64,000 nt of DNA from an uncultured Bacilli bacterium (GCA_934101115.1 CAKOPW010000001.1:73295-137294), one strand, 5' to 3'; shown: positions 1,573 through 53,645, counted from the first letter of the stretch. Translations and numbers: made by a program. The notes: generated from the sequence alone by a model not told the origin.

Positions 1573-4500
1573 CTATTCGCTTCTTAGAGCTTCTACTGGA
1601 TCTTTTTTAGATGCTGATTTGGCTGGTATAAGTCCTCCGATTAAAGTCAATATAATCGATAAAGCAACTAATATAAGAGCATGATTTATATTTAATGTTG
1701 CTGAAAGTGGAATATTACCTGTGAAATGATGAATAACCGAGTTTATTATTGGAATAAATGCATAAGATATACCTATTCCAAAAAGCCCTGATAAAAGTCC
1801 AATAATAAATGTTTCGGCATTGAATATTGAAGATATATTTCCTTTAGACGCTCCGATTGCTCTTAATATACCAATTTCTTTTGTTCTTTCATAAACAGAA
1901 ATGTAAGTTATTACTCCTATCATAATACTTGATACAACAAGAGAAATAGAAACAAACGCTATTAATACATAACTTACTGCATTTACAATAGTTTTTACTG
2001 AAGACATAAGAATACCTGTTGTATCTGAATAATTTATTTTTTTATCTTCATCACTCTTTTTGTTATATTCATCTATAAATGATAAGAAATGTTCTTTGCC
2101 ATCAAAACTATTGAAGTAAAAAGATATATATGTTGGTTCTTCTTTATCTTGATAACCTAGCTTTATTAAATTTGTTTTTTGAGTAGTTTCGGTTTTACTC
2201 ATCATGGCACTTACAACACGAGTAAGCTCATCTTCACTAAAATTAAGTGTAAAAGCGGATGCAATTTTGCTTGCATCAATATTAAATGAAGACGCAAAAC
2301 TGTTAGCTAAATCATTTGTCAGATTTCCAACTTTAGTTAGTACTTCACTTTTAACTTTGGCTTCTGTCATTAGATTCGCAAATTTTTCTTCAGTTTCATT
2401 GATTAATGCGCTTTCAAGATAAGAAGATATAACCGTATTTTTTAAATCATTTATTATTAATACTTCTCCATCAAATGTTTTTCCTACTCCGCTTAAATAT
2501 ACTTTATATGCACTAGAATATGCATTCAATAAACCTTTTATTAAAGCACTATAAGAGCTTTTTAGAGTATCTACTGGTATTAAATATGCTTTTTCCATAT
2601 TCTTTAATTTAGATGTAACATCATCTTTGTTAAAGTAATTATTTACTAGTTCATCTATCTTATCCTCTTGGAAATCTCCACTTAAAACATCATTCATAAA
2701 TGTTTTTAAATTACTTTCAAATAAAGTTTTTGCTGGAGTCGTATCAACACTTATAGAGCTTTCTATTTCACTTATCGCTTTTTTAGTTTTATTTTCAATT
2801 GCTGATGAATCAATTTTACCACCAAAAGCATTTTTTAGTTTTTCTTCATCAACTTTAACTAAATCTTCAAATGAGAAAGCGTATTTATTGTTTTCTTTAT
2901 CAAAACGGTTTCCAGAAAAAACATCAATTTCTGAATTTTTTAATTGTTTTTTTACAATGTCAGTGTCTTTAGTTTGGTTGATAATGTAATCTATTAAAGC
3001 ATTAGTATAAACAACTCCTGGGTTAAGAGAAGTAGATGTTACTCCTTCTTTTGCACTTACAACACCAACTATTTTTAATTTTGTTGCTTTTTCATATACT
3101 TTTTTCATGAATGCTTCATCTTCAGACATATCTTCATACACATCATATTTTTTATTGTATTTATATGTATCAGTTGGAAGAACTAATCTTAAATCAACTC
3201 CCATCAAATCTTCATAAGAAAACTTTAATGGATCATGCTTAATATCAACTTCTTCGCCACTCATGATAGAATTAACCATCTTAGATAGTTCACTTGTATC
3301 TCTTAAACCTAAAGAATACACTAACAAATCAGATATGGTATTTTTCTCTGGTAAAACAATTACCATCTCATCATATGCTGTTGGCCAGTGTCCAGCAAGA
3401 ACATCATAATCTTTGGTTACCTCACTTATATCATCCACCATACTAGAATAAACACTTGCCATAGATGAATATGATGACATTAATGAGTTTCCTCCCATCA
3501 TTGATGTAAATAAATTACTAGGATTCACTTTAGAAAGTTTTTTAGTTGCATCAATTGTATAAATATTAGGATCGACACTGTAAGAATATTGAATATTGGC
3601 AACATCATCTTTTATTTCGTTCATGTTTTTTTCTAAATAAGCTTTAAAGCTTTTTAAATCGTTTGTGCTTACACTTGATAACATATTTGTTATATATTGT
3701 TCTTCAGTTACTTCGTCAGTTGACTCACTACTTTTTTCACCACTTCTCATCGACAAAAGAATACTTGTAATATCGGATGATTCTTGCATAATAGTAAGTG
3801 GATATGAATTTAAAGTGTCTTCTTGTATAGAATCAACATAATTTTGAAATCCGGTAGATACAGCCAATATTAAAGCAATACCGATTATACCAATTGAACC
3901 AGCAATGGATACAAGTACGGTTCTTCCTTTTTTAGTCATTAAGTTATTAAAGGAAAGTGTTAAAGCTGTAAAAAATGACATCTTAGTTTTCTTTAATACT
4001 CGGTTATCCTTTTCCTCTTTTTTATAATCATATGGATTTGTATCACTTAAAAGTTTACCATCTTTAATATTAATAATTCTGCTTGAATAGTTTTGGGCTA
4101 ATTCTGGGTTATGAGTAACCATAATAACAAGTTTATCTTTAGAGATGCTTTTTAATAATTCCATTATTTGAACAGAAGTATCAGAATCTAATGCTCCAGT
4201 TGGTTCATCAGCTAAAATAATATCTGGATCATTAACAAGTGCACGTGCTATAGCAACTCTTTGCATTTGACCGCCGGATAATTGATTAGGTTTTTTATTG
4301 ATATGTTTAGATAAACCAACAGCATCAAGTGCCTTAATAGCTTTTTCTTTTATAACCTTTTTAGATACACCGGATAGAGTAAGTGCAAGCTCAACGTTCT
4401 TTAAAACGGTTTGATGAGTAATCAAATTATAGCTTTGAAATACAAAACCAACTTTATGATTACGATATGTATCCCAGTCACGATCATTATACTTTTTAGT

Positions 4501-4786: not shown

Positions 4787-5224
4787 TTATGAAAGTCTTC
4801 CTTTAACAATTGCTGATACTTTACCCATATCGGCATTGCCATTCGTTTTTTCTTTTACTAAAGAAATTATTTTCCCCATTGATTTGATATCTGGATTTTC
4901 AAAAGTTTCTATAACTTCATCTATTATCTTTTCGACCTCTTCATCACTTAACATAGCTGGTAAATAAGATTCAAGTATTTCAACTTCATGTTTTAAATCT
5001 TGAACTGTATCTGTTTTACCAAATTTTTCATATTCTTGAATTGATGAATTTCTTTTCTTTACTTCTCTTCTAATAACATTTAAAGCTTCTTCATCAGTTA
5101 AATCATGACCAACATTTATTTGTTCCATTTGAAGAGCACTTTTAAGCATTCTAAGAACTCCTAATTTAAATTTATCTTGTTCTTTCATACTTGTAAGTAA
5201 ATCACTTTTAACTTTATCAAACAT
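4787..5224 (-). CDS. yqeY: GatB/YqeY domain protein
   Basis: 145 aa with the typical YqeY sequence (LKSALQ...EEALNVIRREVKKR...YLP) and the conserved position next to rpsU. Confidence 0.85.
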   Translation of the reverse strand: MFDKVKSDLLTSMKEQDKFKLGVLRMLKSALQMEQINVGHDLTDEEALNVIRREVKKRNSSIQEYEKFGKTDTVQDLKHEVEILESYLPAMLSDEEVEKIIDEVIETFENPDIKSMGKIISLVKEKTNGNADMGKVSAIVKGRLS

Positions 5225-46899: not shown

Positions 46900-47763
46900 T
46901 TAAAATACATGATAATGATCCAATAATTTCTTTGATTTACTATTATAAATGTCATTAGAGACAGTATGCGGAGTATATTCATTTTGTTGAGCAAATTTAA
47001 AAATCCAATCACTCAATAATATTTTATATATTTCTTCATAGCTTGTCGCAACTCCTGTATCATCTAAAAACGATTTTTCTGTCATTAGTCTTATACGCCT
47101 TTGACGATCTTTATAACTATCAACGGAATTTTCATATCCATGCTGATTATTTAGATATTGAATAATATTTAAAACATTTTCATATGCGTATTTAAAGGCA
47201 TAATGCTCATCTGGATTTGCTATATAAAGGTAAAACGCTTTCTTTATATCAGCTTGTTGTTGTTTTTCTGAAACTTCGTGACACTCAAAATAAGTTTTAT
47301 ATTCTTTTAATTCGCGATATAATTCACCTTCACCTTGATTTAATTCTAAAATCAAATGATGAAATAAAGCATGAAATTGTTCATGTAACATTGAATCTAA
47401 AAGGCATAAATTGAAACCATCAACTTCTTTGTAAGTTATTTCTTTTGTTTCTGGATTATATACTTCTTCTTTTCCTTCAAAAATATACTTTTCATTAAAT
47501 AATATTTTACCTGATTTTCCATCTTTACCCAAAATTATTCCGGCGTTCATTAATCTTACATCTCTTTTGTCAGACACAACTTCATATGGTTTCCTATTTT
47601 GTTTTTCTGCTTCAACATTTTCTAATTCTTGTAAAAGAGCTAAACGTTCAAAAGGTTCAAGTGATGAAAATACAGATGAATGAAATAAATAGAATAACTT
47701 TGTTTCTTTTCCAATTATATCAGAATTTATGTATTTTCTTGAACGCATAACTTTGTTTAACAT
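46900..47763 (-). CDS. Hypothetical HExxH-motif protein
   Basis: LHEQFHALFHH. Start MLNKVMR has AAAGAGGGG upstream, and its own promoter is TTGCAA-17 nt-TAAAAT. Confidence 0.45.
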   Translation of the reverse strand: MLNKVMRSRKYINSDIIGKETKLFYLFHSSVFSSLEPFERLALLQELENVEAEKQNRKPYEVVSDKRDVRLMNAGIILGKDGKSGKILFNEKYIFEGKEEVYNPETKEITYKEVDGFNLCLLDSMLHEQFHALFHHLILELNQGEGELYRELKEYKTYFECHEVSEKQQQADIKKAFYLYIANPDEHYAFKYAYENVLNIIQYLNNQHGYENSVDSYKDRQRRIRLMTEKSFLDDTGVATSYEEIYKILLSDWIFKFAQQNEYTPHTVSNDIYNSKSKKLLDHYHVF

Positions 47764-47820
47764 TATTATCCCCTCTTTAATAACGTTAGTTATTTTAGCA
47801 AAATTTGAAAATAATTGCAA

Positions 47821-47860: not shown

Positions 47861-48889
47861 TCATTTTAAATTATTATTACATAAAATTGCCTCAATCTTA
47901 TTCACATAGTTATATGAATTAGAATGACTTGCATGTCCTAAAAAAGAATTATAACTTAATAAAAATTTTTTATCATAAAACATATTATTGTTTTTTAAAT
48001 ATATCCATTGTTTAATTGACTTCTTTACTTTCTTTTTAAAGCGTTTTCTAAGAAGAATATGTGTTGGATAAATAATATATCCACAAAAATCAATACCTAA
48101 TTTATTAGGATAATATCTGCTTTTATGATTAAGCGACAGATTTAAATGGGCACTTACAAAAGTTGAAACTAAGTTGAGCACTTCTTTTGCTTCATCTTTG
48201 GTTTTTAAAATAAAAATCTGATCGTCCATATATCTTGTATAAAATTTTATTTTTAGTTCATCTTTTACATAATGGTCTAATTCATTTAAATAAATATTGG
48301 CAAAGAACTGACTGGTATAATTACCAATTGGAATTCCGACTTCGTTGCCATCATCAAGAATTTTTTTACTGAATTCAAGTAATTTTTTATCTTTAATTTT
48401 TGATGCTAAAATCTTTAATAATATTTCTTTATCTATACTATAAAAATATTTTTTTATATCGGTTTTTAAAATATAACAGTTTTTTCCATATAGTTTAGTT
48501 GCATTTCTCAATTGATTTTGAACACATATAACTGATTTATGCGTTCCTCGATTATCTAAACATGCATATGTATCATTGATGAACCGTTTCATAAAATAAG
48601 GCTTTATAAATTCTTCAACATACCATTGATGAACTATACGATCACGGTAAGGCAAAGATTTTATTATTCTTTCTTTTGGTTCATGAATAACAAATTCTCG
48701 ATATTCACCAAACTTATAAGTATTATTTTTTATCTCGTCCATTATTCTTATAAGATTAGTTTCTAATTCCATTTCAAATATTATTACTTCTTTTTTAGTC
48801 TTTTTACCTTTAGAAGCACGTATGTGGGCACTTAACATTTTTTCGAAAGTCAATTTAGATAGAAAAACATTTTTTATTGTTTTAGGCAT
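47861..48889 (-). CDS. DGR reverse transcriptase
   Basis: EPKERIIKSLPYRDRIVHQ, LKTDIKKYFYSID, PIGNYTSQFFANIYL (the DGR-specific IGxxxSQ block) and YTRYMDDQ. Collinear with my recollection of Bordetella phage Brt. Confidence 0.9.
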   Translation of the reverse strand: MPKTIKNVFLSKLTFEKMLSAHIRASKGKKTKKEVIIFEMELETNLIRIMDEIKNNTYKFGEYREFVIHEPKERIIKSLPYRDRIVHQWYVEEFIKPYFMKRFINDTYACLDNRGTHKSVICVQNQLRNATKLYGKNCYILKTDIKKYFYSIDKEILLKILASKIKDKKLLEFSKKILDDGNEVGIPIGNYTSQFFANIYLNELDHYVKDELKIKFYTRYMDDQIFILKTKDEAKEVLNLVSTFVSAHLNLSLNHKSRYYPNKLGIDFCGYIIYPTHILLRKRFKKKVKKSIKQWIYLKNNNMFYDKKFLLSYNSFLGHASHSNSYNYVNKIEAILCNNNLK

Positions 48890-49236
48890 GCATTTATCCA
48901 GCCTCCTAAAGACATACTAACTAAATTTATTTTTCTACTCCATGCTTCATAATTACGAATGTTTATATATTTTCTTTTGTATGATAATCTAGCAAATACC
49001 CTTTGCATTTTTAAATTGATATCAAGTTCATTTAAGTATTTTAATTTTTCCTTTTTATCAAATGACTTATATGCTAGTAAAATATACTTGATACCTTCGT
49101 AGGATGAATTTTTTATTGTTGCAACTATGCCTGATTTAGTTGAATTAGGATATTTCTCAGTGATCATTTCAAGATATATAATAAAATCCATGTATATTTG
49201 ATAAATTCGTGTTTCTTCAACACAGCTAGCTTTCAC
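48874..49236 (-). CDS. avd: Accessory variability determinant (four-helix-bundle protein)
   Basis: 120 aa, helical, ending SLGGWINA. Overlaps both neighbours and lies immediately upstream of the RT. Confidence 0.75.
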   Translation of the reverse strand: MKASCVEETRIYQIYMDFIIYLEMITEKYPNSTKSGIVATIKNSSYEGIKYILLAYKSFDKKEKLKYLNELDINLKMQRVFARLSYKRKYINIRNYEAWSRKINLVSMSLGGWINACLKQ

Positions 49237-49597
49237 TAATGAGCTTCTCCTTTACATCTTTTAATATATTCAATGCCTGCAAGGGCGTTATAGAATCAAT
49301 GTCTAAGTTGATTATTTTTTCTTTAATTGAATCATCTATATTAGTTTTTAAACTATCTACAACTTCGACGTCTAAGTTGTGATTTTTAAAAACGCGCATG
49401 TAGTTATCAAGAACATCAGCAGGAAAACCACATTTGTATGATTCACTTGAGAATTTTACTTTTTTTAATACAACATAATCATTGATAGTATCACAATCTT
49501 CACCAACAAATATATAAAATTTGCCAGATTTAAAAAGATATAATTTGTTTGCATCTTCTTTTTTTAATTGCAAATACTTTTGATATATCACACTCAA
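49226..49597 (-). CDS. MutS domain-I-like small protein (DGR accessory)
   Basis: From TTG 49597 (AAAGGAGGTGG upstream): SVIYQKYLQLKKEDANKLYLFKSGKFYIFVGEDCDTIN...KCGFPADVLDNYMRVFKNHNLDVEVV. This parallels the MutS N-terminus: mqQY..iK.....lLfFR.GDFYElF..DA...PMaGiP......Y...L...G..VAi. Confidence 0.6.
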   Translation of the reverse strand: MSVIYQKYLQLKKEDANKLYLFKSGKFYIFVGEDCDTINDYVVLKKVKFSSESYKCGFPADVLDNYMRVFKNHNLDVEVVDSLKTNIDDSIKEKIINLDIDSITPLQALNILKDVKEKLISES

Positions 49598-49620
49598 TAT
49601 TACCACCTCCTTTAATCCTA

Positions 49621-49645
49621 TTAAAAAAGTGGAAATGATCCACTT
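49621..49645 (-). terminator. Hairpin terminator/attenuator between the TR and the accessory operon
   Basis: On the minus strand: AAGTGGA-tcatt-TCCACTT followed by TTTTTAA, just upstream of the RBS of 49226-49597. Confidence 0.5.
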
Positions 49646-49836
49646 CTTTTTATCTTTGATGTTCATCATTTTACTACTAACCAAAGACATTCTTTTTTAT
49701 ATTTTATTCTACTATGTAGAAAGGTTATAAATTTCTAAAATAAACACTAAAACAAAATCCGTAGATTAATGATATAAAATATGAATATATTTTTCTTATC
49801 TTTGTTTATGTGAAGAATAATCTTATATATTTTAGT

Positions 49837-49986
49837 GGAGAGAACAAGGCGGAACCCGATGTTAGCATTGGCGCCTCCTGTGTTCCTATTGAAGTTGAAC
49901 TGACCTGCGAGAACTCCATTGTCGTAATTGCCGCCCCGATTGAACCAAGGATACGAGGAGTCAACAAAGTTCGAATTGTCGCCATA
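49837..49986 (-). repeat. DGR template repeat (TR)
   Basis: 150 bp, ungapped match to 50184-50333. Asn (AAY)-rich in the reading frame of the VR. Confidence 0.9.
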
Positions 49987-50090
49987 AAGAGTAAAAAGAG
50001 TCAAAAAAGCTAATTTCAACAACTTATAACCTACATTTATACTAAGACTAATAAATTAATATTTTAAACTAACCTACTAGACATAAATGC

Positions 50091-50134
50091 CAAAAAAGTG
50101 ATTCCTTTCCGCTTAAAAAGAAGGCGGAAAGGAA
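50091..50134 (-). terminator. Terminator of the DGR target gene
   Basis: 11-bp stem TTCCTTTCCGC/GCGGAAAGGAA followed by TCACTTTTTTG on the minus strand. Confidence 0.7.
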
Positions 50135-50156
50135 TATTAAAAGTGAAAAAAGTAAT

Positions 50157-50180
50157 TGTAAAAAAACAAGTTTTTTTACA
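50157..50180 (-). promoter_or_regulatory. Hairpin abutting the VR 3' end, candidate DGR target-recognition element
   Basis: Perfect 10-bp stem TGTAAAAAAA/TTTTTTTACA with a 4-nt loop, starting right after the stop codon (50181-50183). Confidence 0.5.
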
Positions 50181-51590
50181 CTAGGAGAGAACAAGGCGGA
50201 ACCCGATGTCAGCAGCGGCGCCTCCTGTGAGCCTAGAGAAGTGGAACTGACCTGCGAGAACTCCATGGTCGTACCTGCCGCCCCGATAGAACCAAGGAGA
50301 CGAGGAGTGAACAAAGTGCGAACTGCCGCCATACCAACTATTATGGTATCTAGAGTTGTTATCTCCGTCTAAATATGTCTTGAATGGTCCCATCTCTCCC
50401 GTTGCATCTCCTAATATTCTATATTGATAAGATGTTAATGTAGATGATGCTGAGTATACATCATAATATTTAGAATCATAATTAGCAAGTGTTGTAGCAC
50501 TAAAACCACTTGATCCTAATTGACCACTCATATATGATGCCACATATTCATGTGCTCCACCAGACATATCATATATTCCACTTATATTTCCAGTAGTTGT
50601 TGCAAGATAACCGATACTTGTATTATAAGCGTTATTATATGTGTTTCCATCACCATAAGTTCCTGGATATGTTTGTTGGCTTGTACTTGGAAGTGCTGAA
50701 TATCCTGTTTTATATGAACTATTATTATTAATGTTAACTTCCGCATTGATTCCATATTTTGAATGGCTTAGATATGCTACTGCTCCCCATTCAGTGTTTT
50801 TCATCATATGTGAATTCATTGCTCTTTTATAATTATAAGCAGCTGTAAACATATTCATGACTGTTAAATTTCTCCATGAATAAGAATTTGGTTTTACAAT
50901 TATTTTGCTTGAATCATTGGAATTTACTTGAGCAGCAGTTGCACTTGTTGCTCCATTGTATCCAGTTTCAAACTTACCTGCCCAGAAGCCATTTACTCCC
51001 ATGCTTATAAATGCTGGATGTGTCATATATTCTCCGTTTTTACAATTTCCACTTGATCCACTTGTCATTGGAGTTTTACAAGATACTCCGGTTACATCTG
51101 TTGTATCAGTTGTATCAAATATTATCTCGATTTCATGAATATTTTTTGAAGCCGTTCCAGTATTCCATAACTTATATTTATATTTTGGAATCCATACAAA
51201 GTAACTTTGGATATCACTTTCTTTTATTGTGTCTCCTACTTTATAACTTGCTCCACTATTAAGAATAACGGCATTTGCCCAAACTTTATCACAGTAGTTA
51301 TACCATACTTTACTTGTATCGGCGTATGTTACAGTTCCATCATCTGAAATAGTAACTGGTATTAAACCATCGGTTAAATTGGGAACTGCAACTTCTTTTG
51401 AACAAGATGTTAAATCAGATGCCTTGCTATAAAGTTCATCTAATGCATCTTGAACGTTTTTGGATTTTAATAAAGACGAAGAATTATCATAATATACATC
51501 TTTTCCGATAATTAAATCTGCTGCATATGCTACACTTACAAATAGTACTAATGCACACATACCAATTATTAATATTTTTCTATTTTTCAT
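50181..51590 (-). CDS. DGR target protein: secreted, with a C-terminal C-type-lectin/FGE-like variable domain
   Basis: Signal peptide ..VSVAYAAD. HMMKNTEWGAVAYL and a C-terminal ...PWFYRGG.Y..GVLAGQF.F.R..GGA..DIGFRLVLS typical of the CLec fold of DGR targets. Confidence 0.8.
   Translation of the reverse strand: MKNRKILIIGMCALVLFVSVAYAADLIIGKDVYYDNSSSLLKSKNVQDALDELYSKASDLTSCSKEVAVPNLTDGLIPVTISDDGTVTYADTSKVWYNYCDKVWANAVILNSGASYKVGDTIKESDIQSYFVWIPKYKYKLWNTGTASKNIHEIEIIFDTTDTTDVTGVSCKTPMTSGSSGNCKNGEYMTHPAFISMGVNGFWAGKFETGYNGATSATAAQVNSNDSSKIIVKPNSYSWRNLTVMNMFTAAYNYKRAMNSHMMKNTEWGAVAYLSHSKYGINAEVNINNNSSYKTGYSALPSTSQQTYPGTYGDGNTYNNAYNTSIGYLATTTGNISGIYDMSGGAHEYVASYMSGQLGSSGFSATTLANYDSKYYDVYSASSTLTSYQYRILGDATGEMGPFKTYLDGDNNSRYHNSWYGGSSHFVHSSSPWFYRGGRYDHGVLAGQFHFSRLTGGAAADIGFRLVLS
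50184..50333 (-). repeat. DGR variable repeat (VR), the last 50 codons of the target gene
   Basis: 17 mismatches to the TR, of which 15 fall at TR adenines on the coding strand. Confidence 0.9.
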
Positions 51591-52401: not shown

Positions 52402-52530
52402 ATCTTTTACCTCTAATTATCTATGCTTTCTTCTATTCTTAATTTAACTATAACACAAATATCTCTTGCAGTAAATAGTTCGTGTGAATATTTTTATTTA
52501 AATAATATCATACTTGTAATGAGGTGTGTT

Positions 52531-52812
52531 ATGAGATTAAACTTTAAAAGTTTGCCTGAACTTTTAGCATTTAATATCAAATATTACCGTTATTTAAACG
52601 GTTATTCTCAAGAAAAACTGGCTGAATTATGTAAGTTAAGTCCAAGATATTTAACAGATATTGAAAGAGGAATCCATTGCCCTCCAATTTCTAAACTTGA
52701 GGTTTTAGCCAAAGCTCTTAATGTAGAGCCATATGAATTATTGCTAAATGAAGATCGTGATAAAAAAATAGTTCAAAAAATGAAGTCATTCAGGCAATAT
52801 AATCAAAAATAA
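52531..52812 (+). CDS. Xre-family HTH regulator
   Basis: GYSQEKLAELCKLSPRYLTDIERG. GAGGTG precedes the ATG at 52531. Hairpin CGAATC-gttt-GATTCG plus a T-run follows. Confidence 0.8.
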   Translation: MRLNFKSLPELLAFNIKYYRYLNGYSQEKLAELCKLSPRYLTDIERGIHCPPISKLEVLAKALNVEPYELLLNEDRDKKIVQKMKSFRQYNQK

Positions 52813-53441: not shown

Positions 53442-53645
53442 TTATTTATTATTATCTTTCAAATTATTTCTTTCATCTAGTCCAAATATAATAATTCCAC
53501 CATATTTATTAGAAAAGCTAGAAAAAGTGTCATAGCATTTTTTAGAAAAACCTAGGGTTGCTGATTTGGCTTCGATCATATTTGTCTCAGAATTGTATTT
53601 TCGCAAAATATCTATCGCTTTGAATATATCCCCTCTTCCATAAAA
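53442..53645 (-). pseudogene. Start-less fragment resembling the N-terminus of an AlbA_2/Schlafen-type DNA-binding protein
   Basis: The open frame after a TGA reads FYGRGDIFKAIDILRKYNSETNMIEAKSATLGFSKKCYDTFSSFSNKYGGIIIFGLDERNN.., and then stops early. Confidence 0.25.

Follow-up and report, generated by a model that had tools for sequence, protein, structure and literature searches.

A probable complete, MSL-class diversity-generating retroelement on the chromosome of an uncultured AT-rich gut Bacilli-like bacterium

Does the locus at positions 47861-51590 of a 64,000-nucleotide (nt) stretch of DNA from an uncultured Bacilli bacterium (CAKOPW010000001.1:73295-137294; 28% G+C; hereafter, the window) hold a complete diversity-generating retroelement (DGR), and does it still rewrite its target gene? 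The answer reached here, with a probability of about 0.9, is that the locus is a complete chromosomal DGR of the MSL (MutS-like) class in an uncultured AT-rich gut Bacilli-like bacterium. The cassette consists of five parts, namely the target gene, the RNA of a template repeat (TR), MSL, Avd and the reverse transcriptase (RT), this limit being set by the immediate neighbours, which are species-specific and absent beside related RTs. All cassette genes and the elements mapped within the cassette are on the minus strand. Both the kind of element and its gene layout have already been described, leaving the knowledge of DGRs unchanged; the value added here lies in population-level evidence of activity, a corrected MSL start and a map of the RNA elements.

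The TR (49837-49986) is 150 nt long, has 34 adenines and aligns without gaps, at a constant offset of 347 nt, to the variable repeat (VR, 50184-50333), which makes up the last 50 codons of the target gene, with the stop codon directly after it. Both copies are 88.7% identical, and on the coding (minus) strand 15 of the 17 mismatches are at adenines of the TR, one at a G and one at a T (Fisher exact p = 1.2e-9). All ten asparagine AAY codons of the TR are altered in the VR, being replaced by S, H, Y, R, H, H, S, L, A and D. The alignment, the enrichment of mismatches at adenines and the codon changes had been given by an initial annotation of the locus, and a recount returned them unchanged. 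In a blastn comparison within the window, TR and VR match each other (E = 3e-52), and there is no third copy of the repeat within that stretch. The repeats have a G+C content of 50%, compared to 28% in the window. Regarding their 3' ends, the last 23 nt are identical in TR and VR and the homology finishes at the stop codon, leaving no IMH/IMH* (initiation of mutagenic homology) difference to point to.

The direction of the exchange can be seen when strains are compared. Three contigs carry the exact RT of the window (L001-L003), and their TR is identical to that of the window; other gut-sample loci from the same species (L004-L007) form a sister lineage with a variant TR, which is identical across the four. 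The one TR sequence shared by L004, L005 and L006 differs from the window TR at 8 positions, none of them an A, and the VR of each of these loci bears all 8 lineage-specific non-A bases of its own TR. Against that TR, the three VRs have mismatches at A only (13/13, 18/18 and 12/12), and they differ among themselves while the TR remains invariant across L004-L007. As each VR follows its own TR and varies at A positions only, this is the signature of mutagenic retrohoming, and thus the flow of information from TR to VR in this species is shown by population evidence, not by experiment. The A-site-restricted variation of the VR across strains, which the initial annotation had put forward as a test, was thereby found at 43/43 mismatches in the assembled DNA of three other samples.

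The 90%-identity cluster of the target has 541 members, of which 15 were aligned and 14 counted after leaving out one VR/TR chimera. All 14 VR peptides are distinct, and the mean column entropy is 0.66 bits in the VR (last 50 residues) vs 0.06 bits in the other 419 columns. Moreover, codons with a TR adenine at position 1 or 2 have a mean of 4.1 distinct residues vs 1.2 for the remaining codons. The DGR is likely to be active at present in the window's own strain as well.

Regarding the assemblies themselves, P0131 (498 aa), a protein of the target cluster, has a VR that runs straight into the TR downstream sequence (…GFRLVLSTKIYKIILHINKDKK…), its contig joining VR and TR either because the repeat collapsed during assembly or because VR and TR truly recombined. 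A contig with the identical RT (L002:1-331) stops ~180 nt upstream of the TR; the TR/VR repeat is probably a point at which assemblies break, and such DGRs may be undercounted in metagenomes.

The enzyme expected from such an exchange is encoded at 47861-48889. This RT of 342 aa matches RVT_1 (E = 7e-16) and carries the DGR IGxxxSQ block, in PIGNYTSQFFANIY (PIGNYTSQ), together with YMDD, as had been recognised from the sequence. Its closest solved structure is 8ub7_A, matched over the full length (E = 3e-51 over residues 5-330), followed by group II intron/retron-type RTs at 3.5e-14 (~1e-14). The 8ub7_A chain, labelled only "Reverse transcriptase", is the Bordetella phage bRT, as identified by its residue numbering against bioRxiv 10.1101/2023.10.23.563531, since K29, F66, R74, I76, D138, I181, G182, Q187 and D215/D216 are placed as this preprint names them. 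Each of those residues is also kept in the window RT. The Avd accessory protein (120 aa, isoelectric point (pI) 9.6; 48874-49236) reaches 55.6 bits against Pfam bAvd PF22296, above its cut-off of 40, and 65.9 bits (E = 3e-18) against NCBIfam DivGenRetAVD, under the cut-off of 80; a PDB sequence search with Avd gave nothing useful. Its end overlaps the RT start by 16 nt, in agreement with the Avd-like gene previously placed upstream of the RT and overlapping it.

Upstream of Avd is the MSL accessory protein (123 aa, pI 5.4; 49226-49597), in which the mutS-like gene of the initial annotation is recovered as part of the DGR by a match to MutS_I (PF01624, E = 1.2e-9). Its start had been placed at the ATG at 49690 and is corrected here to the TTG at 49597, which has an AGGAGG ribosome-binding site upstream; both this site and the start are kept in 65 homologues, and the gene call on the identical contig L001 also gives 123 aa. 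The 5' 90 nt of the longer MutS-like open reading frame (ORF) belong to the conserved non-coding RNA and a terminator-like hairpin. The protein aligns to residues 13-96 (domain I) of Escherichia coli MutS and weakly to residues 827-846. The mismatch-stacking phenylalanine is retained (GKFYIF in MSL vs GDFYELF in MutS), and in place of the glutamate of Phe-x-Glu, 65/65 MSL homologues have a hydrophobic residue, mostly isoleucine. In addition, there is a weak alignment between the last ~20 residues of MSL (NLDIDSITPLQALNIL) and the very C-terminus of MutS (ENLDPDSLTPRQALEWI), and the tail motif D-I/L-x-x-I/L-T-P-x-x-A-L is kept in most of the family.

In Bacteroides, the host MutS cuts the DGR output 5- to 10-fold (bioRxiv 10.1101/2024.11.15.621889), which makes it a reasonable guess that MSL shields the heteroduplex. 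Purely as something we infer, MSL would then be a mini-MutS acting on the mismatched duplex of complementary DNA (cDNA) and VR, most likely shielding it from host mismatch repair. A wider joint reading is offered tentatively and is considered rather unlikely: that MSL is a purpose-built mini-MutS blocking repair, by binding either the heteroduplex or the host MutS, that the TR is delivered as a self-contained small RNA resembling the RT-14 motif described below and finishing at a terminator of its own, and that both belong to a modular anti-repair subtype of DGR. If this were true, a modular subtype countering host repair would be common in gut Firmicutes, with a TR unit that can be duplicated into arrays.

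The order target-TR-MSL-Avd-RT had been regarded as non-canonical and thus as notable, and this was not borne out. A scan for relatives with one genome per species gave 80 related loci, the window's own species not being among them and the best match being 69% identical. MSL is upstream of Avd-RT in 64 of these loci, an A-biased TR/VR pair was found in 41, and the full order together with an A-biased pair is present in 25; in a smaller group, TR and target are inverted and lie beyond the RT on its downstream side. The order is thus common and already catalogued, as Wu et al. (PMC5758913) defined both MSL genes and an MSL-containing "Architecture D" in 2017, on the basis of 16 DGRs, and Msl has been noted in Bacteroides DGRs (bioRxiv 10.1101/2024.11.15.621889). 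By taxon label, all but four (Muribaculaceae) of the 80 loci are from Bacilli, Clostridia, Bacillota/Firmicutes or "Tenericutes", nearly all of them uncultured gut metagenome-assembled genomes (MAGs).

In gene content, the window shares with Architecture D and the Msl-bearing Bacteroides DGRs an RT, an Avd and a small protein with MutS domain I, and no HRDC match was found among the cassette ORFs, as in the MSL class. Also in common are a VR that forms the C-terminus of a surface or secreted protein of the cell and a cellular rather than phage context. The differences are the host, an uncultured AT-rich gut Bacilli-like lineage, and the acidic MSL of the window (pI 5.4 vs a reported mean of 7.2).

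Besides its genes, the cassette has a non-coding stretch of ~420 nt holding the TR (~50041 to 49621), located between the terminator of the target and a hairpin with a T-run before MSL. Its flanks were compared in 16 to 22 related loci, and covariation was counted on an anchored alignment of 16. At the 5' end, a conserved TATAAAT box (50035-50041) precedes the 5' strand of a closing duplex and may be a -10 element, as proposed from its conservation; a simple promoter scan gave 33 sites vs 32 expected from shuffles, with no convincing promoter for the TR RNA. This 5' strand, GGTTATAAGTTG (50020-50031), is 33 nt upstream of the TR and pairs with AAATTTATAACC (49723-49734), whereas the 5' strand of an inner helix, CTAAAATA (49828-49835), begins 1 nt after the TR and pairs with TATTTTAG (49735-49742). 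Both 3' partner strands are thus adjacent (49723-49742), side by side ~95 nt further on, in an arrangement of two stacked helices. Across the 16 loci, 91% of the cells are paired and 14 of the 20 pairs have changes on both sides, a level that none of 500 shuffles attained, and sliding the register of the helices reduces pairing to 31-48%. These pair counts are biased upward, as the 5' strand of the closing duplex was found by best complementarity; its position beside GTAGG is constant, however, and at least 11 of its 12 pairs are formed in 12/15 real loci vs 1.3% of shuffled flanks.

Further elements follow in the downstream part. A candidate small hairpin with a CTACGG loop (49753-49769), found by eye, has a weak stem in the window and clear stems in relatives, where the loop reads TTCAAGG or TTTACGG; it may be an Avd-binding stem-loop. 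Directly after the closing duplex, a stem-loop TTCTAC-ATA-GTAGAA (49707-49721) and an A-rich run (49690-49706) occupy 49690-49721, the stem-loop being in this place in 16/16 loci and the A-rich stretch coming next in nearly all. Then comes a hairpin with the conserved apical loop TAGTAGTAAAATGATGAAC (49653-49687), which is the 3' hairpin in the RT-14 model of Rfam; inspection together with single-sequence folding shows it in 13/16 loci, where the stem varies in sequence yet still folds and the loop of ~19 nt (TAGTAGTAAAATGRYGAA) is kept. The 3' end of the TR-containing RNA would be a terminator-like hairpin with a T-run (49621-49645), upstream of the MSL ribosome-binding site and present at the equivalent site in most of the 16 loci.

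On the VR side, a post-VR hairpin (50157-50180) with a 10-bp stem and a 4-nt loop begins at the first base past the stop codon, and it is followed by an intrinsic terminator-like element of the target gene (50090-50135) with a 12-bp stem, an 11-nt loop and a T-run; the fold of both together (50085-50190) has a z of -6.2. As seen by eye, most of ~20 related loci have a hairpin of other sequence, mostly with a 3-6 nt loop, at the post-VR position. By its likeness to the target-site hairpin of the Bordetella and Legionella elements, it is a candidate target-recognition hairpin or cruciform.

RT-14 (RF02921) belongs to the RT-associated motifs RT-1 to RT-19 (Weinberg et al. 2017, PMC5737381), which those authors guessed could act in DGRs. 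The 3' part of the window RNA aligns to the Rfam model end to end with 27.5 bits, compared to a gathering threshold of 48.1 (E = 0.05-0.12), and this threshold was reached by none of 13 related loci; the window RNA thus resembles RT-14 and does not qualify as a member. In both, UAUU..AG-GAUUUAU-UCC is followed by a small stem-loop, then by an A-rich run and lastly by a hairpin whose loop reads UAGUAGCAAAA..GCGAA, and both are located near an RT gene. In contrast to the RT-14 model, a stretch modelled there as unpaired pairs here with the sequences that flank the TR.

The RNA can also be compared to that of the Bordetella phage BPP-1 DGR (mtd-avd-TR-brt). For DGR RNAs, it has been described as conserved that sequences on the two sides of the TR form a duplex, beside which are a stem-loop ("cPRT Stop") and then adenosines (bioRxiv 10.1101/2023.10.23.563531). 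The arrangement in the window matches this, the stem-loop at 49707-49721 with its A-run corresponding to the last two of these features. The window and BPP-1 have in common the full-length RT homology, with the catalytic and the template- and dNTP-contacting residues, Avd, A-specific TR/VR differences, pairing RNA segments on both sides of the TR, the stem-loop with adenosines, and a hairpin just past the VR. They differ in that the window has the order target-TR-MSL-avd-RT, an additional MSL gene and a chromosomal location; its spacer RNA is two ORFs away from the RT gene and apparently ends at its own terminator, and its post-VR hairpin is A/T-rich, not G/C-rich.

A priming duplex was sought by eye in two pairings, of TAGTA in the conserved loop with an ACTA past the TR and of GAACA with a TGTTC within the TR, and both were set aside, as they are inconsistent across loci. 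An ORF of 91 aa (49747-50022, minus strand) across the TR is not conserved as a gene and crosses the conserved RNA helices, being a by-product of the TR copying a coding 3' end. In an uncultured Bacilli MAG (CANRGA010000003.1; L009:2961-5177), one VR is accompanied by four tandem TR cassettes of ~465-555 bp, with TR copies at 3303-3451, 3766-3915, 4324-4472 and 4788-4937; every cassette comes with an RT-14-like scaffold of its own, the cassettes are 87-91% identical to one another, and 17/23, 20/28, 20/29 and 9/14 of their mismatches to the VR are at TR adenines. With several different templates, one VR would have a wider sequence space within reach at non-A positions.

The target gene (50181-51590) encodes a protein of 469 aa that starts with a hydrophobic signal-like segment, continues with a poorly characterised body and ends in a variable-protein domain of ~240 aa. 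The N-terminus (MKNRKILIIGMCALVLFVSVAYA/AD) looks like a signal peptide, and the VR ends in GFR(L/I)VL at the extreme C-terminus, as in TaqVP (5vf4), TvpA and Mtd, which have the C-type-lectin/FGE-sulfatase fold (FGE, formylglycine-generating enzyme). The C-terminal domain, taken as 239 aa (50181-50900), has 3126 representative-cluster relatives, placed on varied N-terminal parts. No Pfam family was matched at threshold by the target, and a PDB sequence search with it returned nothing useful. PF03781 is matched by its C-terminal half at E = 0.013 (15.6 bits, under the cut-off of 23.3) and by 5/40 distant relatives, at best with 3.7e-5. A profile of the domain reaches the DGR variable protein TaqVP with E = 0.0045 and the FGE-fold protein PvdO with E = 0.23, a marginal similarity in which the target motifs HMMKNTEWGAVAYL and NITGIYDMSGGxxEY align with the FGE-fold motifs HxxxNxEW and GxYDMxGxxxE. 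Hence, the C-type-lectin fold suggested by the initial annotation has gained weak and mutually consistent matches, and of its diversified surface ligand-binding protein what stands is that the C-terminus of a protein with a signal-like N-terminal segment is diversified.

An AlphaFold2 model of the target, made from an alignment of 32 sequences that are 70-92% identical, was unusable (mean predicted local distance difference test (pLDDT) of 39). Among proteins with this C-terminal domain, giants of 3700-4500 aa (P0270, P0283, P0296) have three to six copies of it, and a type IV pilin N-terminal methylation motif (PF07963) was found in 7/40 sampled relatives, drawn from P0255-P0403.

Brought together, these parts would work as follows. 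A discrete RNA, ending at the hairpin and T-run, would be transcribed from the TR stretch. By analogy with the Bordetella phage DGR, a complex of RT and Avd would bind this structured RNA, and cDNA synthesis would be primed in cis from the region downstream of the TR. The TR would be copied faithfully except at adenines, with synthesis expected to stop at the closing duplex, and then the cDNA would replace the VR, guided by the identical GC-rich 3' end of the repeats and by the post-stop hairpin. The outcome would be variation at 22 codons, 12 of them AAY, in the ligand-binding surface at the C-terminus of a protein that is secreted or anchored in the membrane.

Where the element resides also bears on its nature. 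Within 15 kb on each side there are genes for gyrA, RNase HII, holA (DNA polymerase III delta), a protein of the purine-nucleoside-phosphorylase family and formate-tetrahydrofolate ligase (FTHFS), as well as for an ECF-type (extracytoplasmic function) sigma factor, an ABC/FtsX transporter, a two-component system and a GGDEF protein, and none for phage structure, packaging, integrase or conjugation. Searching PHROGs with the neighbouring genes gave only generic matches to helix-turn-helix (HTH) proteins and M23 peptidases. As seen by exact-sequence look-ups, the cassette is between the same neighbours in four other samples, from human gut metagenomes of several studies. The cellular setting free of nearby phage genes, as first proposed, is thus supported by housekeeping flanks and by the same position in other samples.

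Several points weigh against the reading as a complete and working DGR. The VR of the window has two differences from its TR at non-A positions (G to C and T to G), which fit rare RT errors or later point mutation and also some quiescence, and it is identical in the window, L001 and L003, the contigs with the exact RT that reach the VR, possibly because these are of the same strain or project. The upward bias in the closing-duplex counts belongs here too, together with the priming site and the role of the post-VR hairpin, both drawn from analogy, the purely inferred function of MSL and the weakly supported fold of the target. The first two points would suit an element that is a DGR by origin and now silent in this strain, the A-site pattern being a fossil of past retrohoming, all the more as the sister lineage has no non-A mismatch (0/43) compared to the two of the window lineage. 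This alternative is given a small chance, because the ORFs and RNA elements are all intact, YMDD and the residues equivalent to those of bRT are conserved, L001-L003 share an identical TR, and the sister lineage has fresh strain-specific variation at A only; moreover, the identical contigs may come down to one strain or project.

Many DGRs are carried by phages, RT relatives 35-38% identical are found in crAss-like and Vibrio phages, and an HTH repressor-like gene (52423-52812) and an M23 peptidase are close by, from which it could be argued that the element is borne by a phage or an integrative and conjugative element (ICE) for tropism switching or as cargo. This is very improbable, since the gene classes looked for in the 15 kb on either side were not found, the flanks are of housekeeping type and recur in other samples of the species, and the target has a signal-like N-terminus and no tail-fibre context. 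Even less credence, practically none, is given to chance or to an ordinary duplication of the gene's 3' end, with later divergence through normal mutation or gene conversion. A 150-bp direct repeat could by itself arise in this manner, but not one whose mismatches are concentrated at one base, on one strand and in one copy (p = 1e-9), so that the A-bias counts already refute it; in addition, all 43 mismatches of the other strains are at A, and the repeat is linked to RT, Avd and MSL in an arrangement that recurs in 41/80 related loci.

Read as a chromosomal DGR of the MSL class, the locus is a clean natural case of an evidently active cellular element in an uncultured gut Bacilli lineage with a small genome, where both A-only mutation and TR-to-VR copying are visible between strains. 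It provides exact coordinates for the cis elements, namely the TR-closing helices, the stem-loop with its A-run, the RT-14-like hairpin, the terminator-like hairpin and the post-VR hairpin, and these could guide experiments on DGR RNAs beyond the Bordetella phage model. It could also guide the study of the still unexplained MSL, now that host MutS is known to restrain retrohoming.

Regarding the surroundings of the cassette, the flanking genes of 306 aa, AAA_14, 266 aa and 146 aa were considered as accessories and rejected, as they occur only in the same species and not beside related RTs. The ORF of 306 aa (46900-47820, minus strand), downstream of the RT, has no family match and is absent beside related RTs in other species; it is ~73% identical between the two lineages of the species vs 89-95% for the neighbouring genes. 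A gene of 264 aa is located between the AAA_14 and sigma-factor genes in the L004-L006 loci and is absent from the window. Lastly, a short ORF (53442-53606, minus strand) looks like the remnant of an AlbA_2/SLFN-HATPase_c_4 gene of 412 aa, which is intact at this place in L004 and L006 and split in L005.

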